A stretch of DNA of 28,293 nucleotides from Minisyncoccota bacterium (GCA_035905735.1 JAMIGL010000023.1:1-28293); one strand, 5' to 3'. Numbered from the stretch's first letter, positions 1-27,859 are shown. The notes: generated by a model from the sequence alone, not told the origin. Program-made: numbers and translations.

Positions 1-1271
1 CGATGTGTCGGAACCGTCACTACCGGCAATGTGTATACCTTGAGAAACTCTTCTTCGCTTGTTTTTGCAGTACCGGTCATTCCAGAGAGTTTCTTGTAAA
101 ATTTAAAGTAGTTTTGGTATGTAATAGAAGCAACAGACCGGCTTTCTTGTTCGATTTTTACCCCTTCTTTTGCCTCAATCGCCTGATGAAGCCCTTCGCT
201 CCATCGTCGCCCCGGCTGCATACGGCCGGTAAACGGATCAACAATGATGACTTCGCCATCCTTGATTACATAATCCTTGTCTTTGGTATATAACGCTCGT
301 GCACGGATGGCAGTTTCAAGATAGTGAACATATTTGATACCTTCCTGGGTGTACATGTCCTTGATACCAAGAAGTTGCTCAGATTTGGTAATACCATCAT
401 CAGTAAGCTGAATCGCCTTGAGCTTCTCATCAACGGTATAGTCCGTACCGGGAACAAGTCCGGCAACGACTTTTGTGATTGTTTTGTACAGTGATTCAGA
501 ATCAGCAATCGGCGATGAAATGATAAGCGGTGTGCGACTTTCGTCGATCAAGATAGAGTCGACTTCATCCACCACAACAAACGCATGGCCGCGCTGCACG
601 ATATCGTCTTTGGTGGAGACAAGGTTATCACGAAGATAATCAAACCCAAACTGACTGTTGGTACCATAAGTAATGTCTGCAGCGTATGCTTCCTTGCGAG
701 ACACCGGCCGCATCAATTCTTTTTCAATCTTGAACACCCCTTCGCTACTGGTTGTCTCAACTTCTATCTCATGTGTCGGATCAAATACAAATGACTTTTG
801 CTGATCATTGACGACACCGACTGACAAACCAAGGAAGCTATAGATGGCGCCCATCCATGTTGCATCGCGGCGCGCAAGATAGTCGTTCACCGTCACCACA
901 TGCACTCCTTCTCCGGTGAGTGCATTGAGATAGACCGGAAGTGTTGCCATCAAGGTCTTACCTTCACCGGTTCGCATCTCTGCTATCTTGCCATCATGGA
1001 GCACCATACCACCTATCAGCTGCACATCGTAATGACGCTTACCTGTAACACGCTTTGATGCTTCACGCACGAGTGCGAATGCACGAGGAAGCAATGCTTC
1101 GAGTGATTCACCTTCGGCATATCGAGCCTTGAGCAATGCTGTTTCTCCAGGAAACTGCCCATCAGTCAAAAGACCGATTTCTGCCTCAAGTTCATTGACC
1201 TTTCGAACCAATACCTCGTACTTCTTGAGCTGTCCTTTGTCAAATAATGACTGGATAAATGAAAATGCCAT
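1..1271 (-). CDS. secA: Preprotein translocase subunit SecA, 5' part (runs off the window start; absent from the ORF track)
   Basis: Translation from ATG at 1271 gives [19 protein letters not shown]...[29 protein letters not shown]...[15 protein letters not shown], containing the SecA Walker A motif and DEAD-motor motifs. Confidence 0.97.
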
Positions 1272-1279
1272 AGAAGTGC

Positions 1280-1288
1280 ATACTAGCA
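1280..1288 (-). promoter_or_regulatory. Extended -10 element (TGc-TAGTAT) 8 nt upstream of the secA ATG
   Basis: Minus strand reads gTGcTAGTATgcacttctATG. Confidence 0.55.
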
Positions 1289-1309
1289 CAAAAGCCCTCG
1301 CTCCGAAAG

Positions 1310-1341
1310 CACAAAACCGCCCCCTGTCGGACGGTTTTGTG
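1310..1341 (-). terminator. Stem-loop terminator downstream of the H1-like peptide gene
   Basis: CACAAAACCG...CGGTTTTGTG inverted repeat. Confidence 0.6.
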
Positions 1342-1368
1342 TAAGTGGAAAGAGAGTGAGGAGAAGAA

Positions 1369-1476
1369 TTATTTCTTCTTTTTAGCAACCTTCTTTTTTG
1401 CTGCCTTCTTTGCAACCTTTTTCTTGGCTACCTTCTTTGCAACTTTCTTTTTAGCTACTTTCTTTTTTGCTGCCAT
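1369..1476 (-). CDS. 35-aa histone H1-like / protamine-like Lys-Ala-Val repeat peptide ([35 protein letters not shown])
   Basis: Open frame from ATG 1476 to TAA 1369. It has 20 Lys, and synonymous codons vary between repeats. It has its own promoter and terminator and is below the ORF-track size cut-off. Confidence 0.85.
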
Positions 1477-1563
1477 AAAATGAATGTTTTAATCTTGATA
1501 ATACTTCTGTGATGATCGACCACATTGTTTGTGATTGAACGCGTTACCACCACATGTACATTC

Positions 1564-1592
1564 ATTATCTCGCATGCGCATCACGCATGCAA
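1564..1592 (-). promoter_or_regulatory. sigma70-type promoter TTGCAT-17-GATAAT for the H1-like peptide, with a GCATGCG-N5-CGCATGC inverted repeat over the spacer and -35
   Basis: Hexamers at 1587-1592 and 1564-1569, inverted repeat at 1572-1590, AT-rich upstream region. Confidence 0.6.
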
Positions 1593-1609
1593 TATTTTTT
1601 TTATAAAAC

Positions 1610-1618
1610 TGTGGATAA
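1610..1618 (-). promoter_or_regulatory. DnaA box (TTATCCACA)
   Basis: Perfect 9-mer consensus, read as TGTGGATAA on the plus strand, in an AT-rich intergenic region. Single copy. Confidence 0.45.
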
Positions 1619-1750
1619 CTATGCAAAATTTTTTTCTTACTTTTTATAAATGCAATCAATTTGCGTTTATAAAATAACACTCATAAAAATATGATGAAAC
1701 CAAAGGATTTTGCGATATCATCCATAAAATAATTGCATATGTATACAAAA

Positions 1751-1782
1751 GAAAAATCTTCGCGATACAGCGAAGATTTTTC
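1751..1782 (-). terminator. Intrinsic terminator of rnpB
   Basis: GAAAAATCTTCGC/GCGAAGATTTTTC 13-bp inverted repeat followed by a T-run on the minus strand. Confidence 0.8.
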
Positions 1783-2162: not shown

Positions 2163-3887
2163 TTACGCCTCACAGTTTAAACACATGGTATCCTCGCTCA
2201 GAATCGTTACTTTTGGCTTCTTGGATTCTTGCTCCTGGAGCTTCTTGCGGCCGAATTGCTGTGCGGCATTCATCGAGTGCTGGTAGTACAAAGTCTTGAT
2301 ACCTTTCTCCCATGCATACAGATACAGCGCATTGAGATCCTTGGTTGCAATCGCCGGGTCAATCATGATATTGAGCGACTGTGCCTGATCAATGTATTTT
2401 TGACGATCAGCAGCTTGTTCGATGATGACCTTCTGATCGATTTCACTGAAAGTCCTGAAGACATTCTTTTCATGTGTAGTGAGAAAGTCGAGGTGCTGCA
2501 CCGACCCGTCATTATCACGAATACTGTTCCACACATTGACTGTGTTTTGTCCTTTCTCATCGAGAAGCTTTTCAAGGATAGGATTCTTGAGCGTTACCTT
2601 CATCTTGTCCACATCTTTCACGAAAATATTGGACATGAGCGGCTCAATACCCTGAGAAACTTGTCCCAAAATAAATGCAGAAGAAGTTGTCGGCGCGATG
2701 GCAAGAAGTGTCGTATTGCGACGACCATACCCCTTGAGGACTTCTGGTTCGCCGTATTGTTGAGCCATGTCAGCGGATGCCTTGTATGCCCTTTCTTTGA
2801 TGAGTGTGAAAATTTCGTTATTCAACACTGACGCTTCGGCACTTTCAAACGCAATATTGTTCTCCTGAAGAAACGAATGCCAGCCAAGAACTCCGAGACC
2901 AAGCGCGCGATGCTCTTTGGCAAACTTATGTGCACGCTGCATGAAGTAAAATGCCGACTGTTTCTGCATATCCTCACTATCACGGAAACCTTCAAGCCGC
3001 TCCACAAACTCCCCGATCACCGTATCAAGAAACATCGTCAACGTTTCAACGGCATCAGTGTCTTTCCATTCGTGATAATGCCGAAGGTTTATCGAAGAAA
3101 GACAACAGACAAACGAAAGTTCATCATTCGTCGGGAGACAGATTTCGGAACACAGGTTGCTACCATGAATACGCATACCCTTGTCCTTGTACACATCAAC
3201 AGTGTTGTTGTTGACAGTATCACTAAACAGAATATACGGGTACCCAATCTCAGTACGGCGCTGAATGACCTTTGCCCAAATCTTGCGCTTGTCTTGATCA
3301 CCTTCGACCATAGCCTTGAGCCATTCATCACCTACCGTCACCGCATATGTCGACTCTTGAATCGGATGACCTTCCTTGCCGATATTCAAGAATTCTTCGA
3401 TGTCCCCGTGCTCAAGAGGAAGATAGGGCGCGCAGTGACCACGACGAACAGTACCCTGACTGACAATATTAATAAGCTCATCAAAAAGCTCCATAAAGTG
3501 AACAGACCCGGACGAATGACCATTACCCTTGATTTCAGATCCGCGGGGACGAAGATCTCCAAAATATGCCGATGTACCTCCTCCATATTTTGTCATCATT
3601 CCGACCTCTGCATGAGTGTAAAGAATCCGAGACATATCATCCGCAACATAACTTCCGAAACAACTGATGGGAAGCCCTCGAGTTTGGCCATAGTTTGCCC
3701 AAATAGGAGTCGCAAGCGAGTAATACCCCTTTGACATATAGTCATAAAATTTATCAGCAAAGCCAGGCTTCTGAAGGCGTCGCTCCGCGTTCTCTGCAAT
3801 TTCACGAATGCGCTCCTCTGCACTCTGCCCATTCATAAGGTATCCTTTTGCCAAAAATTTTCTACTGTTTTCGTTTAACCAATACAT
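2163..3887 (-). CDS. nrdA: Class I ribonucleotide reductase alpha subunit, short form without an ATP-cone (NrdAi-like)
   Basis: LPISCF, SNLCSEI (N-C-E active site), APTTSSA, TLYY tyrosine pair and C-terminal CLNC; 574 aa. Confidence 0.95.
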   Translation of the reverse strand: MYWLNENSRKFLAKGYLMNGQSAEERIREIAENAERRLQKPGFADKFYDYMSKGYYSLATPIWANYGQTRGLPISCFGSYVADDMSRILYTHAEVGMMTKYGGGTSAYFGDLRPRGSEIKGNGHSSGSVHFMELFDELINIVSQGTVRRGHCAPYLPLEHGDIEEFLNIGKEGHPIQESTYAVTVGDEWLKAMVEGDQDKRKIWAKVIQRRTEIGYPYILFSDTVNNNTVDVYKDKGMRIHGSNLCSEICLPTNDELSFVCCLSSINLRHYHEWKDTDAVETLTMFLDTVIGEFVERLEGFRDSEDMQKQSAFYFMQRAHKFAKEHRALGLGVLGWHSFLQENNIAFESAEASVLNNEIFTLIKERAYKASADMAQQYGEPEVLKGYGRRNTTLLAIAPTTSSAFILGQVSQGIEPLMSNIFVKDVDKMKVTLKNPILEKLLDEKGQNTVNVWNSIRDNDGSVQHLDFLTTHEKNVFRTFSEIDQKVIIEQAADRQKYIDQAQSLNIMIDPAIATKDLNALYLYAWEKGIKTLYYQHSMNAAQQFGRKKLQEQESKKPKVTILSEDTMCLNCEA

Positions 3888-3920
3888 ACTATTTCTTGAA
3901 TTATTTAATAAAACCTTATG

Positions 3921-5192
3921 TTAGAACAGATCATCACTCGTAATACTCTTGCCTTTTTTGTTATAGTTGATGGATTTCTTGTTAAAGAAGTCTCCATGTT
4001 TTGTCCCAATAACTTCATCATAAAACCATTCTGACTCCTTCAAGAGTGCGTCATCCGTAGTGAATATCTTGCGAATACCAATGCTTTGGAGCGAGTTATT
4101 GAATCGCTGCTTGATGAATTCGATAACAACGGCTTTGGAAAGGAACTCAAGCTCACCTTTTTCAAAAATCCAATCGACAACCTGCTGTTCGGACTCAAAT
4201 GCTTCCTCACACAACCTAATCACTTCTTCTTCAAATGCAGCATCAAACCATTCAGGATGCTCTTGTTTGATAATGTTAATTAGATCAATACCAAAGAGTC
4301 CATGGATCTGCTCTTCTTTCGACGTTGCCTCAACCGCATTTGATATCCCTTTGAACAAATTTTTATACTTGTTAAAGGACATAATGATCAAAAACTGGGA
4401 GAACAGTGATACATGCTCGATAAACAACGAGAACAATAGTACCGACTGGCTGTATTCCTTGTTGTCTTCACTGCGGGCGTTAGTGAGGGACTTTTCGAGA
4501 TAGTTGACACGTTTCATTAATACAGGAATCTCTCCAATCGAATTGAACACTTCATTGAGTCCCAATATTTCAAGAAGGTGTGAGTATGCATCGGTATGCC
4601 GCACCTCACTTTCTGCAAAGGTAGATCCAACCGCACCCACCTCAGGTTTCGGGATCTTTTTGTACATGTCACCCCAAAATGTTTTTACGGCGACTTCAAT
4701 CTGCGCGATTGCGAGCATTGCATTCCTGATGGCATTTCGCTCTTTTTCGTCGACATTTACCTTAAAATTCTGTACGTCACCGACAAAGTTAAACTCAGTG
4801 TGAATCCAGTAGGAATGACGGATAGCACTGACATACTCATAGAGCTCAGGATATTCGTACGGTTTGAGATAGACACGCTTTTTAAAGATATCTCGCTTGC
4901 GCTCTTTGGTACGCTGTTCACGATATAGAATGTACGCTTTTGCAACCTCAAAATCTCCCCGTGCCGCGATTTCTCGTTCAACAATGTTCTGAATCGACTC
5001 AACATCAGGAACCACACCTTCTCCATAGGTACTCTCCACCGATGCAATCACCCGATCAGCAACTTCAGAAAGCGCCACCTGGTCAATCGGAGTATGTACT
5101 GCTTGATATGCTTTAGAAATGGCTGTTTCGATACGAGTTCGATCAAATGCCACCACCGAACCGCTTCGTTTTTTGACGAGATTGATTACCAT
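3921..5192 (-). CDS. nrdB: Class I ribonucleotide reductase beta subunit with an N-terminal ATP-cone (NrdBi / class Id-like)
   Basis: N-terminal VKKRSGSVVAFDRTRI...VESIQNIVE...AKAYILYR ATP-cone. Ferritin-like ligand motifs IAQIEVAVK, ESEVRHTDAY, FIEHVSLFSQF and KEEQIH. Confidence 0.95.
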   Translation of the reverse strand: MVINLVKKRSGSVVAFDRTRIETAISKAYQAVHTPIDQVALSEVADRVIASVESTYGEGVVPDVESIQNIVEREIAARGDFEVAKAYILYREQRTKERKRDIFKKRVYLKPYEYPELYEYVSAIRHSYWIHTEFNFVGDVQNFKVNVDEKERNAIRNAMLAIAQIEVAVKTFWGDMYKKIPKPEVGAVGSTFAESEVRHTDAYSHLLEILGLNEVFNSIGEIPVLMKRVNYLEKSLTNARSEDNKEYSQSVLLFSLFIEHVSLFSQFLIIMSFNKYKNLFKGISNAVEATSKEEQIHGLFGIDLINIIKQEHPEWFDAAFEEEVIRLCEEAFESEQQVVDWIFEKGELEFLSKAVVIEFIKQRFNNSLQSIGIRKIFTTDDALLKESEWFYDEVIGTKHGDFFNKKSINYNKKGKSITSDDLF

Positions 5193-5240
5193 AGATACTC
5201 TATATTTCCACTTACTAATAAAAAAGTATGTTCATTATAC

Positions 5241-5377: not shown

Positions 5378-5866
5378 TTATTCAAGAGAGAATTTGAGAC
5401 CTTCTGTGATGCCGAGCTCTTGTGCCTGCCCCGCTGCGATTTCAAGTACATATTTCACCGGAGAAGGCGGGTACCAAACGTCGGGATAACTTTCCGGGGT
5501 GACAAATAAGGCACTACCGACAACCCTCATCGAGTCATCAATCCATATGATATCAATAGGGTATGCCATGTCTTTCATCCAAAAACCATGAAATGCGGAT
5601 GTTTCAAATACAAATAACTTGCCAGTACCCGTCGGAAGTGACAAGGTGCCAGAAAGTCCTACAATACGCTCCTCCTCTGTATCTGCAATACTAACAGGGA
5701 TAATTACTTCGCCATTTAACATAATGAACCTTCCCGACTCAGGTCTATCAACCTTCGCTGGGTCAACCTTACCTTTGGTAAGAACGGCAAAGAGCACTCC
5801 AAAGAGTGCTCCTGTGACCAGTAGTATGAAAATTGCAGTACGAATGCGTGTATCCTTGATAACCAT
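5378..5866 (-). CDS. DUF192 family protein with an N-terminal membrane anchor
   Basis: IADTEEERIVGLSG...GKLFVF...FWMKDMAYPIDIIWID...KYVLEIAAG matches the DUF192/COG1430 pattern. Confidence 0.88.
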   Translation of the reverse strand: MVIKDTRIRTAIFILLVTGALFGVLFAVLTKGKVDPAKVDRPESGRFIMLNGEVIIPVSIADTEEERIVGLSGTLSLPTGTGKLFVFETSAFHGFWMKDMAYPIDIIWIDDSMRVVGSALFVTPESYPDVWYPPSPVKYVLEIAAGQAQELGITEGLKFSLE

Positions 5867-5867
5867 G

Positions 5868-5905
5868 TTATTTGAGCAAAATCAGCTTTATTTTGCCTCG
5901 ATCTA
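5868..5905 (-). other. 3' arm of the pre-16S processing stem
   Basis: UAGAUCGAGGCAAAAUAAAGCUGAUUUU (5878-5905) is complementary to leader 7705-7732, and CUCAAAUAA (5868-5876) to leader 7742-7750. Confidence 0.75.
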
Positions 5906-6065
5906 CCAATCATATGCTCTATAGATACACACGATTGGATTTGCGCACGCTAACCCTTGTGCAGGGAGTGAATATTGAGTCATTCACCACAACCTTTTTC
6001 GATTTACATCGAATCAACCGTATCAATCTATATAATATCCCGAAGGATACGATATAGACATCTCA

Positions 6066-7680
<1,615 letters not shown>

Positions 7681-8737: not shown

Positions 8738-11023
8738 CTATTTCGCAACTTTCACTGCATCATCGAACTTGATCGACAGAAGCTTCGATCCTGCATCGGC
8801 ACCAAGGGTTACACCATAGAGTACAGACGCTCGGGACATGGTCTCGCGGTTGTGGGTGACGACAATGAGCTGTGAATACTCAGCGAGGCGTTCGATCATG
8901 TCGCCGTATTTGCGACTATTTGCCTCATCAAGTGCCGCGTCGGTCTCATCAAGGACGAGAAACGGTGGTGGGTTGACCTGCGATATCGCAAAAAGGAGTG
9001 CGATGGAGACCAGTGATCGCTCACCACCTGAGAACATATGGATTTCTTTTACCTTCTTTTCGGGTAGACTGACATGAACATCAATGCCCCGCTCAAAGAG
9101 CTGATCATCAGCATCACCAGAGTGTTCCATTTCTTCCATCAATTCTTCTTCTGACATCTTTCGCTTGCGCTTCTTTTCAAGGGTGATTGAGAGAAATGCA
9201 TTGCCACCACCAAACATAGACTTGAAGAATTCGCCAAAACGGTCATTGATAATCTTGACGCCATTGGTAAAGCGCTCATCAAGCACCTTTTTAAGCTCAA
9301 TGATCAGTGACTCAAGGTTGCGAATACTACCTTCGGTATCTGCAAGCTCACGAGCCAGGAACTCATCGCGCTCACGCGCTGACTCATATTCACCCAACAC
9401 ATCATTCCCGATCCCTGAATGCTCATCAAGTCTAATCTTGAGCCGATCGATATCGCGCCTCAATGTATGCAAATCTATCTCGGGTACTACGGAGGCATCT
9501 TTGAGTGTGTGCAAAAACGTCGGACCAAACATAAATCCTGCTTCCTTGAGCTCAGCATCAAACTGTTCCTTACGGGAAATGAATGCGCTCTGAGAAACCT
9601 TGAGTATCTGTTGTTCGGCATCACATTGCGTGAGTTCATTTTGCAGTTCATAACGGGCACGTGTTGCAATACGAGCATCTATCAATGATGCTTCGCGGGC
9701 AGACTCGGCTGTGCTGATTTGTTGTTGAATACTGTCTTCACGCGTAATGAGAGCCGTAAGTCCCACCGCAAGACTTTCAAGTTCAAGCGCCGTGTCTTTG
9801 AGCAGCTGTTGATCAGGTTCTACATGCGGCTCAACTTCCTCAGTTTTCGGTTCGCGAGATTTGAGCTTGGAAAGGATTGGCTCGATACGATCCATTGCCT
9901 GGCGAGCATCATCAAGTGACTGCGCACTTCGTATTGCCGCAATAAAAAATTCGATATCAGAAATAATCTGATGATATTCACTCGGTGCAAAAATGATGGA
10001 TGGATGCGTGACTTGCTTCTGCGGTGCGCGTGCAATGTGTCGATGCGCCTCAAGCATGCCTTCGAGGCGACCCATCTTTTGCTCGATGGCACGACGTTCA
10101 TCACGAACGCCCGAAAGCTCGGTGCGGAGCTTTGAAAGCATGCCGATACGCTCATCGTCCTGTGCCGACTGTTCGACCGGAAGCTCAGCGAGCTTTGATT
10201 CAATCGCGTGCTTGCGGTCGTTGATGAGATGGATTGCTTCACGAAGACGCATGTCCTCCTGTCCGAGCTGTGTGCGCTCCGTTGCAAGGAAGCGCACAAG
10301 TGCATCCTCAAGCTCGGTGCGGATTGCACGACCCTTCTCAATCTTTTCAACCTGCTTTTGCAAAAACTTAAGATGCGGTGCAAGCTCACGGCGAAGTGAC
10401 TGGACTTCCTTGAGTGTTGTCATTGCCCTGGTGAGCTTGGACTCGCTTTCTTTGATGCGGAAATGATAGATCTTGAGCCCGAGCGCATCCTCGAGCATTT
10501 CGCGGCGCTCACGGGGATTTGCCCGAAGAATGCCATCTGCTTCACCCTGTGAAATGATATGGTGACTGGATGTGCCAATATTGATTGACGAAAGAAGCTC
10601 ACTCATTGCCTTGAGCTTGATTTCACTACCATTCATCGAGTAAGTACTCGTTCCGTCAGCAAACAACTCACGGGTGAAGGTTACCGTATCAAAGAGTAAT
10701 GGTGACTTTCCCGCCTGCTCCCGGAGGGTGGGCAGGCCTTCACCAGTCTGGAAACCAAACACTTTGTCACTGTTATCAAATGTGATTGATACAGCCGCAC
10801 GGCTCATTTTGGTACCAGCACCCCGGAAAATAAGATCAGCACCGACCTTGCCGCGCATACTTTTCATGGACTGTTCACCAAGTACGAAACGGAATGCTTC
10901 GACAACGTTTGACTTGCCGGAGCCATTAGGACCGACCACTGCAGTCACTGGCGTAGTAAAAGAGAGCGTTGCTTTTTTAGCAAACGATTTGAAGCCGCTA
11001 AGCTCAATGTGCTTGAGACGCAT
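8738..11023 (-). CDS. smc: Short SMC-family ATPase (~761 aa) with no recognisable hinge domain
   Basis: MRLKHIELSGFKSFA start, Walker A GPNGSGKS, Q-loop IISQGE, signature FSGGERS, Walker B/D-loop LVLDETDAALD and H-loop VVTHN. Confidence 0.9.
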   Translation of the reverse strand: MRLKHIELSGFKSFAKKATLSFTTPVTAVVGPNGSGKSNVVEAFRFVLGEQSMKSMRGKVGADLIFRGAGTKMSRAAVSITFDNSDKVFGFQTGEGLPTLREQAGKSPLLFDTVTFTRELFADGTSTYSMNGSEIKLKAMSELLSSINIGTSSHHIISQGEADGILRANPRERREMLEDALGLKIYHFRIKESESKLTRAMTTLKEVQSLRRELAPHLKFLQKQVEKIEKGRAIRTELEDALVRFLATERTQLGQEDMRLREAIHLINDRKHAIESKLAELPVEQSAQDDERIGMLSKLRTELSGVRDERRAIEQKMGRLEGMLEAHRHIARAPQKQVTHPSIIFAPSEYHQIISDIEFFIAAIRSAQSLDDARQAMDRIEPILSKLKSREPKTEEVEPHVEPDQQLLKDTALELESLAVGLTALITREDSIQQQISTAESAREASLIDARIATRARYELQNELTQCDAEQQILKVSQSAFISRKEQFDAELKEAGFMFGPTFLHTLKDASVVPEIDLHTLRRDIDRLKIRLDEHSGIGNDVLGEYESARERDEFLARELADTEGSIRNLESLIIELKKVLDERFTNGVKIINDRFGEFFKSMFGGGNAFLSITLEKKRKRKMSEEELMEEMEHSGDADDQLFERGIDVHVSLPEKKVKEIHMFSGGERSLVSIALLFAISQVNPPPFLVLDETDAALDEANSRKYGDMIERLAEYSQLIVVTHNRETMSRASVLYGVTLGADAGSKLLSIKFDDAVKVAK

Positions 11024-11030
11024 GACTGAA

Positions 11031-11039
11031 AGTATACCA
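11031..11039 (-). promoter_or_regulatory. Extended -10 (TGg-TATACT) 7 nt upstream of the smc ATG (leaderless-type)
   Basis: Minus strand reads aaTGgTATACTttcagtcATG. Confidence 0.7.
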
Positions 11040-11096: not shown

Positions 11097-11705
11097 TTAA
11101 TAATCGCTCAGCCCTCTGAATGAATCAGATGCTGATGCTTGCCCAAACACTGGCTGCATACCACCTCCCAGCATACCATTCCTAGCACCAATGATAGTAC
11201 TCGCTGTTCTGATAACATTTGTTAAAAGTGCAGCTTTTTGCTCATCAGTAGCTCTTGGTCGTGAAGCTCGTTGTGCAGCTTTTTGACGTTTTGCTTCAGC
11301 TTTTTTTGCCTGCCTCATCGCTTCTTCATTTTGTTGATGAAGTTTTGATTCTTCAGCGAGTTTTGCTTTCAACTCTTTTGCTGAAAGTGCAGGCACTAGA
11401 AACAATCCGTCAGTCACTGAAATGTATGGCTTACCATTAAACGTATACACAACTTCGCCTATTTTAAGACGATGTGGTACACGATTTATGATGGATCCGT
11501 TTGAATCATATTCAACGGCCTCACAATCAGATGGCGAAGTGATCGTATCTCTGGTTGTACCATCAAGTACAATAGAGGGAACATAATCACGAAAGACTAG
11601 TGATATATGCCTTTCAGCAATAGTCACTTGCTTACTCTTTTGAGCAAATGTTGTGGTTGTTGTGATTATTAAGATCACAAAGAACGAAAATAATACCTTT
11701 TTCAT
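11097..11705 (-). CDS. Hypothetical secreted protein (~202 aa) with a signal peptide, a coiled-coil segment and a Gly-rich tail
   Basis: MKKVLFSFFVILIITTTTTFA-Q has Sec signal-peptide shape; the gene has its own promoter and terminator. Confidence 0.75.
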   Translation of the reverse strand: MKKVLFSFFVILIITTTTTFAQKSKQVTIAERHISLVFRDYVPSIVLDGTTRDTITSPSDCEAVEYDSNGSIINRVPHRLKIGEVVYTFNGKPYISVTDGLFLVPALSAKELKAKLAEESKLHQQNEEAMRQAKKAEAKRQKAAQRASRPRATDEQKAALLTNVIRTASTIIGARNGMLGGGMQPVFGQASASDSFRGLSDY

Positions 11706-11746
11706 ACGTGAAAATTTTATAGGTGTTTTGAATGATTTCTGTGTAT

Positions 11747-11821: not shown

Positions 11822-12511
11822 CTACCAACCTTTTGCCTCAAGGGCGGCGCGGGCGGCACTTTGCTCGCCTTCTTGCTTGGAGCGCCCCTTGCCTTCGGCA
11901 ATCTTCTTGTCACCAAAATAGATACCGATCATGAACCATTTGTCGTGATCAGGACCAGTCTCCGCTACAACCTTGTACGAAGGAGTGATATTGAGTCGCT
12001 CTTGGGCTTCTTCCTGGACAAGACTTTTGGCATCTTTCCAGAGTTTCTTTTTGATGATTTCCGGAAGACGAGGAATCAAACTGTTGGTCACAAATGTCAC
12101 ACAAGCCTCATATCCTTGGTCCAGATAGAGCGCACCAACAAATGCTTCATATGCATTGGCAAGGATGGTCTGTCGAGCACGACCAACGTCTTTTTGCTCT
12201 CCTTTTGAAAGGAGAAGATAGTCATTCATCCCAAGCTCATTTGCCGCCTCACCCATAATGATGGCATTCACAAGCGCACTTCGATACGCAGTAAGGTCAC
12301 CTTCTGCATGGGTTGGATATTGACGGAACAAATAGTCCGTAATGATAAGCTCAATAACCGCATCACCGAGAAATTCATATCGCTCATTGTGCTCAAGACC
12401 TGAACGAGGGTTTTCGTTGATGTATGAACGGTGGGTAAATGCACGAGCAAGGATAGACTTGTCAGCAAACGAAATACCAAGCGAGCGTTCAAACGGGGTG
12501 AAATCTTTCAT
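11822..12511 (-). CDS. rnc: Ribonuclease III
   Basis: HNERYEFLGDAVIEL signature, ANAYEAFVGALYLD, and a C-terminal dsRBD (DAKSLVQE...GKGRSKQEGEQSAA). Confidence 0.97.
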   Translation of the reverse strand: MKDFTPFERSLGISFADKSILARAFTHRSYINENPRSGLEHNERYEFLGDAVIELIITDYLFRQYPTHAEGDLTAYRSALVNAIIMGEAANELGMNDYLLLSKGEQKDVGRARQTILANAYEAFVGALYLDQGYEACVTFVTNSLIPRLPEIIKKKLWKDAKSLVQEEAQERLNITPSYKVVAETGPDHDKWFMIGIYFGDKKIAEGKGRSKQEGEQSAARAALEAKGW

Positions 12512-12571
12512 AGGATGGTTGTACTACTCGCGTATGCGGACGATATCCCCATGCGCCAATAGTCAGTAAAG

Positions 12572-13471: not shown

Positions 13472-13480
13472 AATTATTGA

Positions 13481-13732: not shown

Positions 13733-13771
13733 ATGACAAATATCATACACTAGTAGTAAAAAAAAGTAAAT

Positions 13772-14437: not shown

Positions 14438-14446
14438 TGGTATAGT
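14438..14446 (+). promoter_or_regulatory. Extended -10 (TGg-TATAGT) 6 nt upstream of the thrS ATG (leaderless-type)
   Basis: gaTGgTATAGTtttgggATG. Confidence 0.72.
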
Positions 14447-14452
14447 TTTGGG

Positions 14453-16221: not shown

Positions 16222-17242
16222 ATTGGGAAAGCTTTTCAATCAATGATTTGCCCGCCCCCGAAGGATCGACTCTTGGCACACCAGATGGCGAGAGGACAAC
16301 CGAGTCAACAGTGTAGCTGACAGGTTGGTGGTCCGCATTAAATGCAACACTGACTATACCTGAAGTACCCAGAAGACCACGCGTTACAAGCCGTCCACCT
16401 CCGACAAAGTTGCCCATACTATAGGCAATAAGGCGATCTTTATACCATTCTACCTTGCGCAATACATGCGGCCCCGAACCAAGCACAAGATCAGCACCTG
16501 CATCAATCGCCGTGTATGCAAGAAGCTGTACGTTACCGCGGTTTTCACTTCCCATATACTCAGTCTCACCAGTCACCAGTGTCTTGTCAGCACCTTCTGC
16601 GCCCGCATGAAATACCACAACGACAATATCATTTGTTTCGCGAAGCTTGGTAACTTCACGCTTGATAAATCCATAATCAAGTATCGTGTTCCAAGGCTTC
16701 GTACTCGAGAGTCCGAGCACCCCAATACGAACACCATCGACCATCATGCTATGCGTCGCATTTGTACTAGCTACATATGGTATCCCAACACGCTCAAGCT
16801 CTGCTCGTGTGTCTCTGAGTCCTCCTTCACCAAAATCATACGCGTGGTTGTTTGCAAGGCTGACCATATCAAAACCAGCATCGGCAAGCGCATCGGCAAA
16901 TGACCCATCACCTGCAAATGCATGACACATACTGCTAACAAAATATTCGCACTTGGACACATGCCCATCAGTCGCAAACGTACCCTCAAGGTTACCAATC
17001 ATCAAGTCGGGCTTCTGAGTAAGCTCTCGTACTCCGGCAAAGACTTGCTGGTTGTACACTCTATCAGCGGGAACCATATCACCCACCCATCCGATCGTGA
17101 GCAGTCGGGGCGCTTCGGCGACAGGGCGACTCACCGAAAATGCCGAGAGAACAGGAAGCGGTACCGCATGAAGTGACAGTGCGGCAACACCATAGGCAAT
17201 ACTCGCAAAAAGTCCCGTTATCAAAATCAACCGAGGCTTCAT
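16220..17242 (-). CDS. CapA/PGA_cap family metallophosphoesterase-like membrane-anchored protein
   Basis: VGD, GNLEG, LANNHAYDFG, VFHAG, GSGPHV and YSMGNF motifs; N-terminal hydrophobic segment; ATGA overlap with the rnr stop. Confidence 0.85.
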   Translation of the reverse strand: MKPRLILITGLFASIAYGVAALSLHAVPLPVLSAFSVSRPVAEAPRLLTIGWVGDMVPADRVYNQQVFAGVRELTQKPDLMIGNLEGTFATDGHVSKCEYFVSSMCHAFAGDGSFADALADAGFDMVSLANNHAYDFGEGGLRDTRAELERVGIPYVASTNATHSMMVDGVRIGVLGLSSTKPWNTILDYGFIKREVTKLRETNDIVVVVFHAGAEGADKTLVTGETEYMGSENRGNVQLLAYTAIDAGADLVLGSGPHVLRKVEWYKDRLIAYSMGNFVGGGRLVTRGLLGTSGIVSVAFNADHQPVSYTVDSVVLSPSGVPRVDPSGAGKSLIEKLSQ

Positions 17243-19188
17243 ACCAATGCGTAGTCAATGAGTCGTCGATCGAGATCGGTCGACATCACTTTAAAGCGAA
17301 TACTATCTCCAATACGAAAACTCTTGCCTGTCCGACGACCAATAATCGCAAGCTCGCGGTCGTTGTACTCAAAGAAGTCATTGCCAAGATCGCGCATGCG
17401 AACCATACCTTCACATTTGGTTTCCTTGTCCTCAACAAAAATACCGTTTGGTGAAATACCGGTCACAACACCATCAAACACCTGTCCGATGCGATCACTC
17501 ATGTACTCAACCTGCTTGTATTTGATCGATGCACGCTCTGCATCCGCTGCTTCCTTTTCACGGGTCGATGAATGCAGACAAACCTTGTCATAGTACTCCC
17601 ACATTTCTTTGGGGATCTTGTGATGCTCGAGATATGCCTCAAGCAATCGATGTACGATAAGGTCAGGATATCGACGAATCGGGGACGTGAAATGTGTGTA
17701 GTACTTGAATGCGAGACCGTAGTGACCGATGTTTTTGGTCGAATAGATCGCCTTCATCATAGAGCGCACGATAGCGGTCTGAATGGTTTCTTTTTCAGGC
17801 TTGCCCTCGAGTGACTGGACGAGCTTGTTGAGCTCCTTTGACGGAATGACACCGTTTTCATCAACCTTTACGTTGTAGCCGACACGCTTGAGAAACATGT
17901 GCAGATCATCCATGCGATCAGCATCAGGCGCATCATGAATGCGGTAGACAAAGACCTCATCCGCATGACTCTCACGTGTCGCAATATGCTCAGCAACCTT
18001 TCGGTTTGCGAGCAACATCAACTCCTCAATCATGTGATGTGTCTCTCCGCGTGTTTTCTTGTAGACCCCGATTGGGTGACCAGTCTCATCGAGCTTGAAT
18101 TTCACTTCTTGGGTATCAAGTGAGATCGCACCGTTTTGGAAACGTTCTTGTTCTAAATATTTTGATACGGCAAGTGCTGCTTGGAGCTCCTTGAGATACG
18201 GACCGTTTTTGGTATCGAGCACCTGCTGTGCACTTTCGTAGCTGTAGCGCTGCTTGGAATGAATGACAGTCTTGCCAAACCATTCACTTACAATCTTCAT
18301 CTGTGGTGTGAAAATAAATACTGCAGAGAATGTGAGGCGATCAACGTTTGGATTCAAACTACAGAGATCGTTTGAAAGCGTCTCAGGAAGCATCGGGATC
18401 GTGCGATCCACGAGATAGACCGATGTAGCACGCTCTGCCGCCTCCACATCAATAGCATCCTTGGGACGAACATAGTGCGACACATCAGCGATATGAATAC
18501 CAATCTCCGTGTTGCCATCCGGAAGAAATGTCACCGAGATAGCGTCATCAAAGTCTTTTGCATCCTCAGGGTCGATAGTGAACACTACCTGATCTCGGAA
18601 GTCACGGCGACTCGCCTTGTCTGCATCAGGAATACCGCGAGCACTGATGGCTTCAGCCTCCTTCCACACGGCATCGGGGTATTTGTTGTCAAAGCCTTTC
18701 TCCAGTGCAAGCGAGAGCATCTCGGCATTGTTCTCAAACGGCTTGCCGAGTACACGAACAATCTCACCCACTGGTTCTTTCATCGGATCCTGCCAACCAG
18801 AAATGCGGCAAAACACTTTGTCACCCTGCTTTGCTTCACCCACCTTGTCTTCTGGAATAAAAATACTGGTATACATGCGACCATCACTTGTCGCAAGGCA
18901 GTGGTTGCCATTTTGGAATGTGAGCGTGCCGCTATAGCCGCTTTTTGCGCGACGGACGATATCTACAACCTTGCCGGTCGGATTCATATCGGAAAGTATC
19001 GTGACTATTTCTGCAGACACGACATCCCCATGAAATGCACGGTTGAGTGCTTCGCGAGGGATTTCGATGGTAACACCCAGATCACGGAGCTTCACATAGC
19101 CGATACCTTTTGGAGAAATATTGATGACACCTTCAAATTGCGCACCTCCTTTGAGTACCGAAAGATCTGGTTGTGGTTTGTTTTTCAT
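17239..19188 (-). CDS. rnr: Ribonuclease R (cold-shock domains, RNB domain, S1 domain)
   Basis: FTIDPEDAKDFDDA active site, IEELMLLAN, HFTSPIRRYPDLIVHR and a C-terminal S1 domain. Confidence 0.95.
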   Translation of the reverse strand: MKNKPQPDLSVLKGGAQFEGVINISPKGIGYVKLRDLGVTIEIPREALNRAFHGDVVSAEIVTILSDMNPTGKVVDIVRRAKSGYSGTLTFQNGNHCLATSDGRMYTSIFIPEDKVGEAKQGDKVFCRISGWQDPMKEPVGEIVRVLGKPFENNAEMLSLALEKGFDNKYPDAVWKEAEAISARGIPDADKASRRDFRDQVVFTIDPEDAKDFDDAISVTFLPDGNTEIGIHIADVSHYVRPKDAIDVEAAERATSVYLVDRTIPMLPETLSNDLCSLNPNVDRLTFSAVFIFTPQMKIVSEWFGKTVIHSKQRYSYESAQQVLDTKNGPYLKELQAALAVSKYLEQERFQNGAISLDTQEVKFKLDETGHPIGVYKKTRGETHHMIEELMLLANRKVAEHIATRESHADEVFVYRIHDAPDADRMDDLHMFLKRVGYNVKVDENGVIPSKELNKLVQSLEGKPEKETIQTAIVRSMMKAIYSTKNIGHYGLAFKYYTHFTSPIRRYPDLIVHRLLEAYLEHHKIPKEMWEYYDKVCLHSSTREKEAADAERASIKYKQVEYMSDRIGQVFDGVVTGISPNGIFVEDKETKCEGMVRMRDLGNDFFEYNDRELAIIGRRTGKSFRIGDSIRFKVMSTDLDRRLIDYALV

Positions 19189-19189
19189 G

Positions 19190-19262
19190 AGCCACCTCCG
19201 AGAATCGAACTCGGGACCTACGGTTTACGATACCGTTGCTCTACCAGATGAGCTAAGGTGGC
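19190..19262 (-). tRNA. tRNA-Thr(CGU), CCA not encoded
   Basis: Cloverleaf GCCACCU/AGGUGGC; D arm GCUC/GAGC; anticodon arm ACGGU-AUCGUAA-ACCGU; T arm CCGAG-UUCGAUU-CUCGG; discriminator U. Confidence 0.96.
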
Positions 19263-22300: not shown

Positions 22301-23721
22301 ATCAGCCAGGTTGCTCCCAGTAGTACTATCAGCACGAGTACCGCTCGTCTCATTGAGATTCCAAAATCCAACAAGGCTGTTTGACAAGCCAATTGGCGTT
22401 GCAGCGCTCGTGCCTGAAGGAGTGCTCGTACCGATGCCATTAACAGCGCTTACTCTGAAATCATACGACGCACTGTTGGTAAGTCCTGTCACAGTTGCTG
22501 ATGTAGTGGTCGAAACTCCATCAGAAAAAGTAGACCAACTTGGATTACTCGTCAGCTTGTATTCAACTATATAATCACTGATCGAAGAACCTCCATTTGA
22601 GACTGGTGTCATCCATGACAGAGATGTCGTTGCGTCACCAACAATAGTAATAAGAGATGTTGGCGAACCTGAAACTGTAGGCAACGTAGGAGTTGCAGTA
22701 CTAGTACTCGATACAGCACTTGTTCCAATACTATTAATTGCCGAAACCCTAAAGTCATAACTTGCGCCATTGGTCAGACCAGTAACAACTGCAGAGGCCG
22801 TCGCACTTGTTCCATCAGAAAAGGTTGTCCAACTACTGTCTGCACTTAATTTATATTCGACAATATAGTCACTGACAGCTGAACCATACGATGAAGGAGC
22901 TGTCCATGACAATGCCACCTGTGCATTTTCCCCATTGGCAACGAGCGAAGTTGGGGAAGAAGGGGCAAATGTTTCCACTCCGTTTCCTGAATTATACAAA
23001 GACGTACGCTCACCAGCCGAAAGCACACGCTTCCATACTCCTACTGCATCAATCCGGCCATTCATAAGGGCGGATGCTCCATTATTGGCTGCTCCGATGG
23101 AAAACGAGGCTGTTCCGTCAAACACCCCTGTCGAGTGAGCACTAGAATTCACCGTGCCATTATTCACTTGGATATTGATCGTATTGCTGACTGAGTCATG
23201 CCAGGCGACGACGTAATACCAGGTGTTTATTGAAGGAGAACCCAGGGCGTCGGCATTTATGGTCGCAGTACCAGTACCTGTTCCACTAGGGCTCACATAA
23301 AACTGGAAACGATCTACAGACTGATTGTACCAAAACAAGTATTCAATCTGGCTTGTCGATGACAAATATTTTGAAGCGATAGTCCTACTAACACTTTTGT
23401 CTCCCATATAGACCCACCCCGAAAGAGTGAAATCTACATCACCTGAACTCAGGGCTGTATTATCTGAAATCGAGAGATGGTTTGATCCTGAAAATAAGGC
23501 TGCATTACTAATTTTTCCCGTCGCTGAACCAACCGAACCGGTATTGCTGAGAGTGTTTGATCCTGATATATCAGCACGAGTACCACTTGTTTCATTCAAA
23601 TTCCAAAAACCGACAAGATTGTCGGTGAGTGCCGCATGGGTTGTACTAGCTGGAACTAAAAAGAATACCCCCCCAGAATAAGTATTGCTATAAGAAACCG
23701 AAAAGGCTTAAGAAATTTCAC
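19394..23721 (-). CDS. Giant secreted surface protein (~1442 aa if the frame is restored): signal peptide - LamG - FN3 x2 - LamG - SGNH/SASA O-acetylesterase - Ig-like - FN3-like - Pro-rich linker - PG-binding domain; frameshifted at a G7 run
   Basis: The 1401-aa ORF 19394-23599 has no plausible start of its own. GTG at 23721 gives MKFLKPFRFLIAILILGG, which joins VFFLVPASTTHAALTDNLVGFWNLNETSG if one G is added. Esterase motifs are GQSN, QGE and DGVH. The C-terminus reads DLYPGMTGPDVTTLQRYL...YFGLATKAALRKLQ. Confidence 0.85.
21783..23431 (-). repeat. Intragenic direct repeats between the two LamG domains
   Basis: Identical blocks: 21900-22016 = 23139-23255 (117 bp), 21783-21820 = 23022-23059 (38 bp), 22155-22189 = 23397-23431 (35 bp). 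Confidence 0.9.
23668..23674 (-). repeat. G7 homopolymer in the signal-peptide coding region
   Basis: CCCCCCC on the plus strand; G8 would fuse the two frames. Confidence 0.9.
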
Positions 23722-23727
23722 TTATCA

Positions 23728-23736
23728 ATTTTACCA
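23728..23736 (-). promoter_or_regulatory. Extended -10 (TGg-TAAAAT) 6 nt upstream of GTG 23721 (leaderless-type)
   Basis: Minus strand reads gTGgTAAAATtgataaGTG, preceded by a T9 run. Confidence 0.7.
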
Positions 23737-25249: not shown

Positions 25250-25441
25250 TTACGCGTTTGTCGAGCGGGCTTGGTTTTGCGCAGTGAGTGCCCGTGCAAT
25301 GTTCTTGCGAGTCTCACTATATGCCTTGCCGATCTTGCCTGATGCTCCCTTGACGGTCATCGCATGAAGCGATGCGCGAAGGGTTGCAATCTCGGTAGCG
25401 AGCTCAGCAGGAGTTTTGGTTGTGTAGGTAGTCTTTTTCAT
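25250..25441 (-). CDS. rpmC: 50S ribosomal protein L29 (start at MKKTTY)
   Basis: [13 protein letters not shown]...RKNIARALT; syntenic position. Confidence 0.9.
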
Positions 25442-25445
25442 AGGA

Positions 25446-25862: not shown

Positions 25863-25866
25863 AAGC

Positions 25867-26535
25867 CTATTTCTTTGCGTCCTTATTAAACACCTGACCC
25901 TTGTAGATCCATACCTTGATACCGATGTCACCGTATGGCATGTGCGCACGCTCACGAGCATAGTCGATGTCAGCACGGATAGTCTGAAGCGGGATTGAGC
26001 CACGCTTGATGACTTCTGAACGAGAGATTTCCGCACCACCGAGACGGCCACCAACGTAGAACTTGGCACCCTGGATACCGCGGACAGTCATCACCTTTTC
26101 GACGAGCTGCTTCATGATACGACGGTATGGCATACGCTTTTCGAGACCTTCAGCAATCATGAATGCCACAATCTTTGCATCAGCTTCTGGATTTGCAACT
26201 TCAACGATTTCGAGTTTGATATCATCATTTACCGCAAGCTTTGCGCGCTTGAGCTGCTTGATGAGGTCGACTTTGAGCTTGGTGATACCTTCACCACTGC
26301 GACCAATGATCATACCAGGACGTGAGGTACGGATGATGATGCGCACAGCTTTCTGACTGCGCTCTATTTCAACACTTGAGACATAGTATCCACGGAGACG
26401 CTTTTCGAGGTATTCGCGCACTGTCACATCAACCTTGAGGTTGTCGACAAATGCTGCATCTGTAGCAAACCAGCGTGATTTCCAATCACGGAGTGTTACG
26501 AGGCGATGTGCGTATGGATGGACTACTTTAGACAT
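25867..26535 (-). CDS. rpsC: 30S ribosomal protein S3
   Basis: KVHP, WKSRWF, RPGMIIG, GRLGGAEISR, PLQTIRADIDY, GIKVWIYKG. Confidence 0.98.
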   Translation of the reverse strand: MSKVVHPYAHRLVTLRDWKSRWFATDAAFVDNLKVDVTVREYLEKRLRGYYVSSVEIERSQKAVRIIIRTSRPGMIIGRSGEGITKLKVDLIKQLKRAKLAVNDDIKLEIVEVANPEADAKIVAFMIAEGLEKRMPYRRIMKQLVEKVMTVRGIQGAKFYVGGRLGGAEISRSEVIKRGSIPLQTIRADIDYARERAHMPYGDIGIKVWIYKGQVFNKDAKK

Positions 26536-26538
26536 ATA

Positions 26539-26907
26539 TTATTTTGCTACTTTTTTACTAGCTGACTTTTTTGCTGCTTTTGGCTCTACTTCCGCAAGTG
26601 TCACCGTCACATGACTGGTGCGCTTGTTGATCGGCTTGCCGACACCCATAGCTCGAGGCATCATGCGCTTGAGCACAATCCCTTTGTTGACCTCGACGTT
26701 CTTGACCATGAGCTTTGACGCATCAGCACCGAGCACTACTGCGTTTGCAGCTGCACTCTGGATGAGCTTTTGCATTGGTTCAGCACCGCGCTTTGCCATG
26801 AATGAAAGCGCTGTATCAGCAGCAGCAAGAGTCTTGCCCTTAACAGCACCTGCAATGAGGCGAACTTTGCGAGGACTCTGACGATAGTTGGTAAGTGATG
26901 CTTTCAT
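26539..26907 (-). CDS. rplV: 50S ribosomal protein L22
   Basis: RQSPRKVRL, SAAANA, KRMMPRAMG, KRTSHVTV. Confidence 0.97.
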   Translation of the reverse strand: MKASLTNYRQSPRKVRLIAGAVKGKTLAAADTALSFMAKRGAEPMQKLIQSAAANAVVLGADASKLMVKNVEVNKGIVLKRMMPRAMGVGKPINKRTSHVTVTLAEVEPKAAKKSASKKVAK

Positions 26908-26924
26908 AAATAATGTTTAGAATA

Positions 26925-27269
26925 CTATTTCTTTTTAGTGTCAGTGGTGGACTTTGCTGCTTTTGCTGCAGTGATTTCGGCTTCCTTTTTCTTCTGGTCG
27001 ATATCCTTCTGCATCTTACCGCCGTGACGAGTGAACTTGCGAGTCGGAGAAAATTCACCGAGACGATGACCTACCATATCTTCGGTAACGAGTACTTCGA
27101 TATGCTGTTTGCCATTGTGGACACCAAAGGTGAATCCGACCATTTCTGGTGCGATCTGGCTGTCACGTGACCATGTCTTGATAACCCCTGCTGAGAGAGG
27201 CTGTTTTCCTTCAATTTTCTTGAGGAGTTTTGGGTCAACGTATGGACCTTTGGCGAGTGATCGAGTCAT
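26925..27269 (-). CDS. rpsS: 30S ribosomal protein S19
   Basis: [39 protein letters not shown]. Confidence 0.98.
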
Positions 27270-27305
27270 AACTAGAATAAAAAATGCCCGTTTTGAGCTC
27301 CGAGT

Positions 27306-27333
27306 ATCTTAGCAAATTACAGCGCAATGTCAA
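27306..27333 (-). promoter_or_regulatory. Internal promoter TTGACA-16-TAAGAT (with TGc extension) driving rpsS-rplE
   Basis: Consensus -35 and extended -10 about 35 nt upstream of rpsS. Confidence 0.75.
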
Positions 27334-27354
27334 ATCTATTTATATCTCTCAAAC

Positions 27355-27443
27355 TATGTGTCAAAAAATGAACGCATATTCGCCTGCTGGCGAATTGCTG
27401 TGCTCGACCCAGTCGGCCTGTGCAAGTCATTTTTTGACACATA
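27355..27443. mobile_element. Candidate MITE (85 bp, TGT...ACA ends, TA on both sides)
   Basis: Perfect 17-nt inverted repeats TATGTGTCAAAAAATGA (27355-27371 and 27427-27443); internal hairpins ATTCGCC/GGCGAAT and CGAC/GTCG; no ORF. Confidence 0.55.
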
Positions 27444-27463
27444 ATTTGTTCGAATTTGCTGTT

Positions 27464-27859
27464 TTATACCATCAATACAAGGATTTTTGGCAAAAAGATG
27501 ACAAGTCCGACAACAACTGCACCAATCACCGTCAAAAGCACCGCTCCAGCAGCCACATCCTTGGTGTCACGCGCATACGGGTGGAAGTCTGGGCTCGTGA
27601 GGTCTATATCGATCTCAATAGCCGTATTGAAGCCCTCAGCGACCAATACGCTCGTAATAGCAAGCACCAGGAGCGCCCACTCGGCTTCGCTGATGTTGAG
27701 ATACAAGCCAAGCCCTATCGCAACCACTGTTGCAAGCGCATGCACCCATGCATTGTGCTGTGTTTTAAATATCACACTGATCCCCCTGATCGCATGTCTG
27801 AAACTCTGTGCCCGAGCAATAATCGAAAAGCGCTTTTTTTCTGAGAGTTTTGGTTGCAT
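27464..27859 (-). CDS. dgkA: Prokaryotic diacylglycerol/undecaprenol kinase family protein
   Basis: SFRHAIRGI, AEGFNTAIE and KDVAAGAVL motifs; three hydrophobic helices; 131 aa from MQPKLS. Confidence 0.93.
   Translation of the reverse strand: MQPKLSEKKRFSIIARAQSFRHAIRGISVIFKTQHNAWVHALATVVAIGLGLYLNISEAEWALLVLAITSVLVAEGFNTAIEIDIDLTSPDFHPYARDTKDVAAGAVLLTVIGAVVVGLVIFLPKILVLMV

Follow-up and report, generated by a model that had tools for sequence, protein, structure and literature searches.

In the bacterium whose DNA is shown above, the base immediately preceding the start codon is a pyrimidine, much more often U than C, with purines nearly excluded. This pyrimidine at position -1 is the sole strong position-specific signal beside the start codon itself, and it is strongest in highly expressed genes. 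The stretch analysed (GCA_035905735.1 JAMIGL010000023.1:1-28293; 28,293 nucleotides (nt), hereafter the window) is the 28.3-kb contig C23 of a metagenome-assembled genome (MAG) of the Minisyncoccota, 386 kb in 46 contigs and about 71% complete. The nearest relatives of its RpsC are labelled Candidatus Nomurabacteria or Paceibacterota (Parcubacteria, candidate phyla radiation (CPR)), and wastewater metagenomes among the public sequencing runs contain the window's DNA. A preliminary description, made from the sequence alone, had listed 20 starts with T at -1 and six without, and had read them as a code of two modes, in which mRNAs with a leader begin at UAUG while the others are leaderless. All 20 were confirmed, and every base given in that list is correct. 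Nor is the list circular, because most of its starts are simply the first ATG of their open reading frame (ORF).

How general is this T? Across the MAG, 396 ORFs were called by length and codon bias, each beginning at its first in-frame ATG, and 371 starts were scored. The base at -1 is T in 54% (199/371), C in 24%, A in 15% and G in 7%. Against a local T content of about 30% the excess is highly significant (binomial p = 2e-21). T precedes 22% of internal in-frame ATGs and occupies 25-29% of positions -2 and -3, and A is depleted at -1. The information at -1 is 0.28 bits, at any other upstream position at most 0.12 bits, and the 114 starts that have no nearby alternative start again give T in 54%. 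The same pipeline applied to 100 kb of E. coli yields 25% T both at starts and at internal ATGs; among annotated starts of that species T is found in 22% (n = 112), and among its ribosomal protein (r-protein) genes in 1 of 28. The bias thus exceeds what local A+T content would give. With 46% of starts genome-wide not T, on the other hand, the uniformity of the window's 20 starts does not extend to the genome. The U(-1) bias is real, yet it is a preference and not a rule.

Could chance, local A+T richness or the selection of starts in the preliminary description have produced the bias? Some of those starts were indeed picked by eye, and the upstream regions are rich in A+T. However, a blind first-ATG rule reproduces the result, T shows no comparable excess at -2 or -3, A is scarce precisely where T is abundant, E. 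coli is flat, and the preference is conserved across 80 species. The counts refute this explanation, which has almost no chance of being correct.

No comparable preference for A was seen further upstream. Genome-wide, A is not enriched at -3 (0.32) or at -6 (0.36) over a background of 0.31; A(-6) is high solely at r-protein junctions and is confounded there by upstream TAA stops. The leader motif AAAGGTC, looked for upstream of starts in this genome, is absent. Downstream of the ATG (+4 to +10), the first two to three codons are strongly A-rich across the whole genome, with 46-48% A at +4 to +7.

The preference at -1 rises with expression. Among the 26 translation genes of the genome the base is T in 22, C in 4 and a purine in none (85% U); C is found at the operon-internal r-protein genes rpsG, rpsM and rpsN and, in relatives, at rplV and rplP. 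Over quartiles of increasingly r-protein-like codon usage, the fraction of T(-1) is 0.49, 0.44, 0.54 and 0.67, while that of either pyrimidine climbs from 0.65 to 0.92 (p = 8e-4).

Is the base also conserved? Nine r-protein genes were compared across 30 species of the genus, at 70-90% DNA identity: the base before their orthologous starts is T in 84%, C in 15%, A in 1% and never G. Position -1 holds 1.32 bits there, while neighbouring positions drift at 0.2-0.6 bits; over 232 same-genus and 173 wider r-protein starts it carries 1.2-1.3 bits against at most 0.6 for most neighbours. In 80 Nomurabacteria/Paceibacterota species the base before rpsC is T in 69, C in 9 and A in 2, and that before rplP is T in 57 and C in 23. 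T(-1) also marks about 34 of the 43 r-protein starts from 10 other families. These comparisons show a pyrimidine at -1, mostly U, that is kept by purifying selection throughout the Nomurabacteria/Paceibacteria, while the bases beside it drift.

The signal is strongest at operon-internal genes with spacers of 1-20 nt, where no transcription start is expected, and so it acts at the RNA level. Might it then belong to the junction between one gene and the next? Ribosomes terminating in a tight operon could restart at the nearby AUG, with U(-1) a part of the stop-start junction; the operons are dense, and many r-protein junctions read TAA-N(1-12)-T-ATG. But among co-directional genes the frequency of T(-1) is similar over gaps of up to 15 nt (53%), of 16-60 nt (67%) and of more than 60 nt (60%), and T(-1) is also present at the operon-first genes nrdA, rnc and nusB. 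We regard termination-reinitiation as highly improbable.

Loss of the Shine-Dalgarno interaction

For much of the bacterial tree it is an open question how start codons are found without pairing between the Shine-Dalgarno sequence (SD) and the anti-SD. The present lineage is a clean natural case, the anti-SD being gone and not merely sequestered. The 3' tail of the 16S rRNA is GGAUUAACUCAAAUUGAG (also given as GGAUUAACUCAAAU), with ACUCA standing where CCUCC is expected. An identical tail is found in 12 same-genus genomes, and different tails lacking CCUCC in 10 other families of the order. Within the class the state of the anti-SD is a mosaic, and 137 of 301 genomes sampled across the phylum have the canonical tail. 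The genes correspond: GGAG, GAGG or AGGA lies between -18 and -4 in 5% of starts, as against 11% of internal ATGs and 56-65% in E. coli measured alike, and G is depleted from -13 to -6. The ribosome is without an anti-SD and the genes are without SDs, as the preliminary description had stated.

According to the accessible parts of two papers, such a loss has precedents. Anti-SD loss together with SD scarcity has already been published for a subgroup of Parcubacteria (Tsurumaki et al. 2022, RNA, PMC9297842), and Campbellbacteria and Wolfebacteria are placed in a category iv, in which the CCUCC core is lost and SDs are scarce (Estrada et al. 2024, PLoS One, PMC10783764). The present lineage resembles those Parcubacteria in having tails without CCUCC and no SD motifs, across its entire order and in many of the families in its class. 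In the same parts, the two papers report the loss of the anti-SD and not what replaced the SD, and they describe neither a context at -1 nor leaderless promoters.

If the anti-SD is absent, does U(-1) depend on its absence? The preliminary description had tied the two together. Sixteen other Patescibacteria were sampled over 100 kb each; T(-1) stands above the internal control in 16/16, and genomes that keep CCUCC are also high (G416, 78%; G163, 67%; G091, 57%), SD motifs being lacking there. The tie does not hold: U(-1) is equally strong in CCUCC-keeping Patescibacteria and is thus not specific to loss of the anti-SD. G099, in which GGAGG precedes rplP and rplN, has A(-1) at both of these and T(-1) at its SD-less genes. 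Three of the CCUCC-keeping genomes, the Paceibacteria G163, G406 and G416 (L057-L071, L159, L160, L162), have SD pattern matches at 6-11% of starts, no more than the internal control; with an anti-SD retained and unused they resemble the Bacteroidia. SD-independent initiation of the U(-1) type seems to predate the loss of the tail and to reach beyond it. Its presence in Patescibacteria that bear CCUCC and do not use SDs suggests that it preceded, and permitted, the loss of the anti-SD.

Has the altered tail acquired a new SD of its own? In 25 of 30 same-genus species (L121-L148), GAGTT lies 10-11 nt before the ATG of rplP, rplN, rplX or rplE, and at that spacing it precedes 44 ORF starts, against at most 18 for any word of the same composition. 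The word, at a spacing like that of an SD, matches the altered tail perfectly: GAGUU(A) is fully complementary to (U)AACUC, and their duplex energy lies between -4.9 and -7.2 kcal/mol, GGAGG:CCUCC reaching -8.7 kcal/mol. GAGTT may be an operon-restricted, re-coded SD, or else an unrelated processing or regulatory site; its occurrence at these same-genus junctions qualifies the term 'SD-free'. At the r-protein junctions of the present genome (window 23811-27270) and of its nearest relative it is absent. Upstream of starts genome-wide in G000, G013 and G016 it is not enriched, and in G000, G013, G016 and G034 an ATG located 10-11 nt past a GAGTT is no likelier to be an ORF start. Before the starts of G000, GAGT (13 against a background of 17), AGTTA, TTGAG and other tail-complementary words are likewise not enriched, and a re-coded SD in this genome was rejected on that ground. 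Unlike the SD-abundant organisms with an altered core (category iii in the accessible part of Estrada et al. 2024), it has no sizeable share of genes with a tail-complementary motif. In the 10 other families with different tails, neither the r-protein junctions nor 100-kb samples showed any prominent tail-complementary word, and co-variation of upstream motifs with those tails was rejected for want of matching words. In G035 (L157), which belongs to another family of the order, the starts of rplP, rplN and rplX read GAGT-ATG, with GAGU directly against the start codon.

Promoters close to the start codon

What else precedes the starts of this genome? TAnnnT occurs 51, 34, 31 and 30 times at 6, 7, 8 and 9 nt before them, over a background of about 8 per position; in all, about 38% of starts carry the motif within this range. 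TATAC, ATACT and TGCTA, the 5-mers most enriched upstream, combine into an extended -10 element, TG(C/G/A)TA(T/C)A(C/A)T. Among ORFs of 80 codons or more, 92 carry TGnTAnnnT at a distance of 6-9 nt, and no -35 is visible. The E. coli control for a -10 box near starts shows no peak (0.04 versus 0.05). In 7/7 sampled genomes whose tail clearly lacks CCUCC, the TAnnnT peak stands 3-4-fold over background. G360 and G405 have a weaker peak (about 1.5-fold); it is weak in most members of the class that keep CCUCC, and present also in two CCUCC-bearing genomes of the phylum. About 25-40% of genes are thus shown to have a predicted extended -10 element at 6-9 nt from the ATG and no recognisable -35. 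The preliminary description is borne out in that a large class of leaderless-type promoters exists.

Leaderless genes with a -10 box about 6-8 nt before the start are reportedly the mark of the 'group C' of GeneMarkS-2, said to include Actinobacteria and Deinococcus-Thermus; Zheng and colleagues are also said to have described such genes in 2011. The present architecture is like that of group C in its peak of TAnnnT, or of the extended TGnTAnnnT, 6-9 nt upstream. It is unlike group C systems in its host lineage, the Patescibacteria, and in a ribosome wholly without an anti-SD. A literature search found no publication describing leaderless mRNAs or this architecture in Patescibacteria.

Do the promoters and U(-1) divide the genes between them? 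Genome-wide, T(-1) is found at 54% of starts with a TAnnnT box at 6-9 nt and at 53% of starts without one (Fisher p = 0.91), and a box at 6-7 nt precedes 25% of non-T starts and 21% of T starts. The strict split into two modes therefore fails. Nor can starts lacking T be equated with leaderless ones: three-quarters of them have no box of the leaderless type, and C(-1) occurs at operon-internal r-protein genes. The two signals overlap and do not partition the genes, and about one-quarter of the starts follow neither.

One part of the two-mode proposal stands in this genome, namely that the strictest leaderless class is without a preference for U. With TGnTAnnnT at a spacing of exactly 6 nt, the ATG is preceded by C in 20 cases, T in 5, G in 5 and A in none (n = 30). 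At 7-9 nt, T(-1) returns in 36/62, compared with 5/30 at 6 nt (p = 2.7e-4 for T, 7e-5 for C). At the 6-nt spacing the A of the ATG is the expected transcription start, and the exchange of T for C fits a selection that acts on U(-1) only if it is transcribed.

Is the pyrimidine, then, a feature of the promoter? RNA polymerase of E. coli follows an established start-site rule, Y(-1)R(+1), and a pyrimidine before the ATG might merely mark leaderless transcription starts. The large share of starts with a nearby TAnnnT (about 38%) accords with this explanation, as does the pyrimidine at 25/30 of the starts with an extended -10 at 6 nt. But T(-1) is as common without a box as with one, the signal is strongest inside r-protein operons with genes 1-20 nt apart, and the cleanest leaderless class has C, not T. 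We consider a promoter origin very unlikely.

How U(-1) might act

What might read a U at -1? The initiator tRNA (G000:C14:289-360, outside the window) has a C1xA72 mismatch, the anticodon loop CUCAUAA and A37, the base with which the preliminary description had proposed that U(-1) pairs. The other components to which it had pointed, bS1 (with four S1 domains) and IF3, are also present in the genome. The anticodon stem of this tRNA ends in two G-C pairs preceded by A-U, where bacterial initiators typically have three consecutive G-C pairs.

The proposal gains from the finding that U(-1) is enriched, position-specific and conserved and that A37 is present; the mechanism itself is not new. Quadruplet pairing of U(-1) with A37 has been shown in E. 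coli by compensatory tRNA mutations, and the idea, known as the Ganoza/Eckhardt model, is decades old (Hollerer & Jeschek 2023, NAR, PMC10018350); that paper cites a chloroplast case with compensatory A37 mutations (Esposito et al. 2003). The present system is like the U(-1):A37 model in favouring a U 5' of the AUG and in having an initiator tRNA with A37. It differs in extent: in E. coli the effect is small and there is no genomic bias (22-25% T in the counts above), whereas here U(-1) is dominant, at 54% genome-wide and 84-85% in r-protein genes. It differs also in the exclusion of purines with C as second choice, C having no place in the published model. A further counterpart is found in the Bacteroidia, whose initiation is SD-independent and uses a Kozak-like A(-3), A(-6) and A(-12/-13), the anti-SD being kept and sequestered (Baez et al. 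2019, NAR, PMC6847099). Both systems tune SD-less initiation by single bases close to the start, but the A at -3 and -6 that is the signal in Bacteroidia stands at background here, where the signal is a pyrimidine at -1. The components are thus of known kinds; what is new is a dominant -1 pyrimidine in an SD-less lineage.

We think it probable, though far from assured, that the signal is a lineage-wide start-codon context and not a two-state code, and that U(-1) and the promoters near the AUG together replace the SD. Operon-internal mRNAs and those with short leaders would initiate without the help of an SD. U(-1) would provide a fourth base pair, with A37 of the fMet-tRNA, C being tolerated and purines clashing, and this pair would stabilise the initiation complex on the correct AUG. 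Promoters 6 nt from the ATG would give truly leaderless mRNAs, in which -1 is untranscribed and displays the promoter's own preference, C in this genome; those at 7-9 nt would give leaders of 1-3 nt that still end in U. On the simplest reading, the extra U(-1):A37 pair, weak as it is, would gain so much weight in the absence of the SD helix as to become fixed in highly expressed genes.

Several points weigh against this interpretation. C is a clear second choice (15-24%), which Watson-Crick pairing with A37 does not explain. To our knowledge A37 is universal in bacteria; since E. coli has no genomic bias toward U(-1), something else must make this lineage depend on it. Within genes UAUG is not avoided: the Markov-corrected ratio of observed to expected TATG is 0.83, close to the 0.85 of E. 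coli, and selection against internal UAUG was rejected on this ratio. The exchange of T for C at the 6-nt spacing was not reproduced in smaller samples of relatives (T 18/42), and selection of U(-1) only where it is transcribed is therefore treated as suggestive; the effect may be peculiar to this species or a matter of sampling. The start calls are crude, being the first ATGs of codon-bias ORFs, which dilutes the percentages and could distort them. Finally, two public runs labelled RNA-Seq, compared with window 8300-28293, are probably DNA, with fragmentary contigs and no pile-ups of 5' ends or read starts.

Might the ribosome, and not the tRNA, select the base? That C consistently comes second while purines are excluded suggests that sterics may play a part, and keeps such an explanation alive. 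With no SD helix to hold the mRNA in place, a kink between the P and E sites, or a nearby contact with 16S rRNA or protein, would best fit a small base, giving the order U > C >> A, G by sterics; that purines fall to 0-1% in r-protein genes while C holds second place is not predicted by A37 pairing alone. Yet U exceeds C four- to six-fold, and in E. coli the interaction with A37 has been demonstrated through compensatory mutations of the tRNA (PMC10018350). We judge selection by the ribosome alone to be unlikely.

Pairing with A37 may also be combined with the GAGTT words described above. In a Nomurabacteria-type initiation, a (Y)AUG quadruplet read by A37 would be the main start determinant of internal and short-leader cistrons, and AACUC:GAGUU would act in most species of the genus as an operon-restricted SD, placed 5-6 nt ahead of the AUG in several r-protein cistrons. 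This combination strikes us as doubtful, though a genuine possibility; if true, quadruplet recognition would be the primary mRNA determinant in a natural bacterium.

The lineage offers two testable replacements for the SD: leaderless or near-leaderless promoters, and a near-obligatory -1 pyrimidine in highly expressed genes. Gene finders tuned to SDs will misplace starts here, and terms for Y(-1) and the -10 box would improve calls in thousands of CPR MAGs.

Starts and features of the window

The starts and related features are collected in table 1. The four starts without T(-1) to which a -10 box at 6-7 nt had been assigned (smc, thrS, the dgkA-like ORF and the giant gene) do have one. The converse claim, that all 20 genes with T(-1) have leaders, does not survive: a -10-like hexamer lies 6-9 nt upstream of secA, ORF 11705, rpmF and rplN, the last with TAAAAT 6 nt from the ATG of a gene inside an operon. 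Judged by its promoter, secA is probably a U(-1) gene with a leader of just 1-2 nt.

Table 1. Starts and associated features of the window (strand and coordinates in window numbering).
Feature	Position	Strand	Start	Base at -1	Upstream element or remark
secA, TATG	1269..1288	-	ATG 1271	T	extended -10 TGCTAGTAT (1280-1288), 8 nt upstream
K/A-rich peptide (H1-like in the preliminary description)			ATG 1476	T	
nrdA, TATG	3885..3888	-	ATG 3887	T	no nearby -10 box
nrdB (ATP-cone fused), TATG	5190..5193	-	ATG 5192	T	
16S trailer	5860..5947	-			pairs with 16S leader 7682-7764; predicted RNA duplex, -47 kcal/mol
16S rRNA	6066..7680	-			Rfam RF00177, 1354 bits; tail lacks CCUCC
ORF 8458				T	
smc	11021..11039	-	ATG 11023	C	TGGTATACT (11031-11039), 7 nt upstream; leaderless type
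ORF 11705, T-ATG	11703..11719	-		T	TAAAAT (11714-11719), 8 nt upstream
rnc, TATG	12509..12512	-	ATG 12511	T	no box
nusB-NUDIX fusion, TATG	13469..13472	-	ATG 13471	T	no box
rpmF	13730..13747	-	ATG 13732	T	TATGAT (13742-13747), 9 nt upstream; Pfam L32p
ORF 14363				T	
thrS	14438..14455	+	ATG 14453	G	TGGTATAGT (14438-14446), 6 nt upstream; leaderless type
capA (PGA_cap), TATG	17240..17243	-	ATG 17242	T	start overlaps rnr stop (ATGA)
tRNA-Thr(CGU) (19189-19262), then rnr	19186..19262	-	ATG 19188 (rnr)	C (rnr)	tRNA by ARAGORN and Rfam
Giant gene	23719..23736	-	GTG 23721	A	TGGTAAAAT (23728-23736), 6 nt upstream; candidate leaderless start of a 1401-aa surface-protein ORF
r-protein cluster rpsS-rplV-rpsC-rplP-rpmC-rpsQ-rplN-rplX-rplE	23811..27270	-	ATGs 27269, 26907, 26535, 25862, 25441, 25218, 24974, 24594, 24347 (rpsS to rplE)	T (every ATG)	
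Membrane-protein ORF (dgkA in the preliminary description; dgkA-like)	27857..27871	-	ATG 27859	C	TATACT (27866-27871), 6 nt upstream

The spacers within the r-protein cluster measure 1-20 nt and hold no GGAGG-type SD at the usual spacing. The capA gene is operon-internal, given the overlap of its ATG with the stop codon of rnr. As had been claimed for rnr, its ATG follows directly upon the last base of the tRNA-Thr, leaving no space for either promoter or leader; over window 17239-19262 the genes tRNA-Thr, rnr and capA adjoin without spacers. The Pfam domain SMC_N begins at residue 14 of the longer smc ORF.

The remaining start without T(-1), that of DUF192 (named by Pfam), had been described as adjoining the pre-rRNA stem. 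This is so: the predicted helix between the 16S leader and trailer covers the DUF192 AUG (5866-5864, C at -1). With the start codon inside this helix, rRNA processing could both free and unmask the DUF192 mRNA.

Immediately upstream of the -10 box of the giant gene, TGGTAAAAT, lies a T10 run (window 23737-23747). A DNA contig from a different wastewater sample (X3) lacks one base of the run, at 23738, so the length of this promoter-proximal homopolymer varies between populations.

Pfam and Rfam back the names first given to secA, the RNase P RNA, nrdA, the ATP-cone-nrdB fusion, DUF192, the stand-alone 16S gene, smc, rnc, the nusB-NUDIX fusion, rpmF, thrS, capA and rnr; the window also holds the 1401-aa surface protein and the rpsS-rplE portion of the r-protein cluster. 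Reading each stop codon in turn as sense gave no clear sign of an alternative genetic code, and the r-protein genes terminate cleanly under table 11; an alternative code was rejected on these two grounds. The 16S gene (6066-7680) measures 1615 nt and, compared with the Rfam model, carries an insertion of some 67 nt close to the 5' end; it is unlinked, being followed by neither a tRNA nor a 23S gene inside the window. Two of the fusions are unusual: in window 12572-13471 NusB has a C-terminal NUDIX domain, and in window 3921-5192 the ATP-cone is carried by the small subunit of ribonucleotide reductase, not by the large one.

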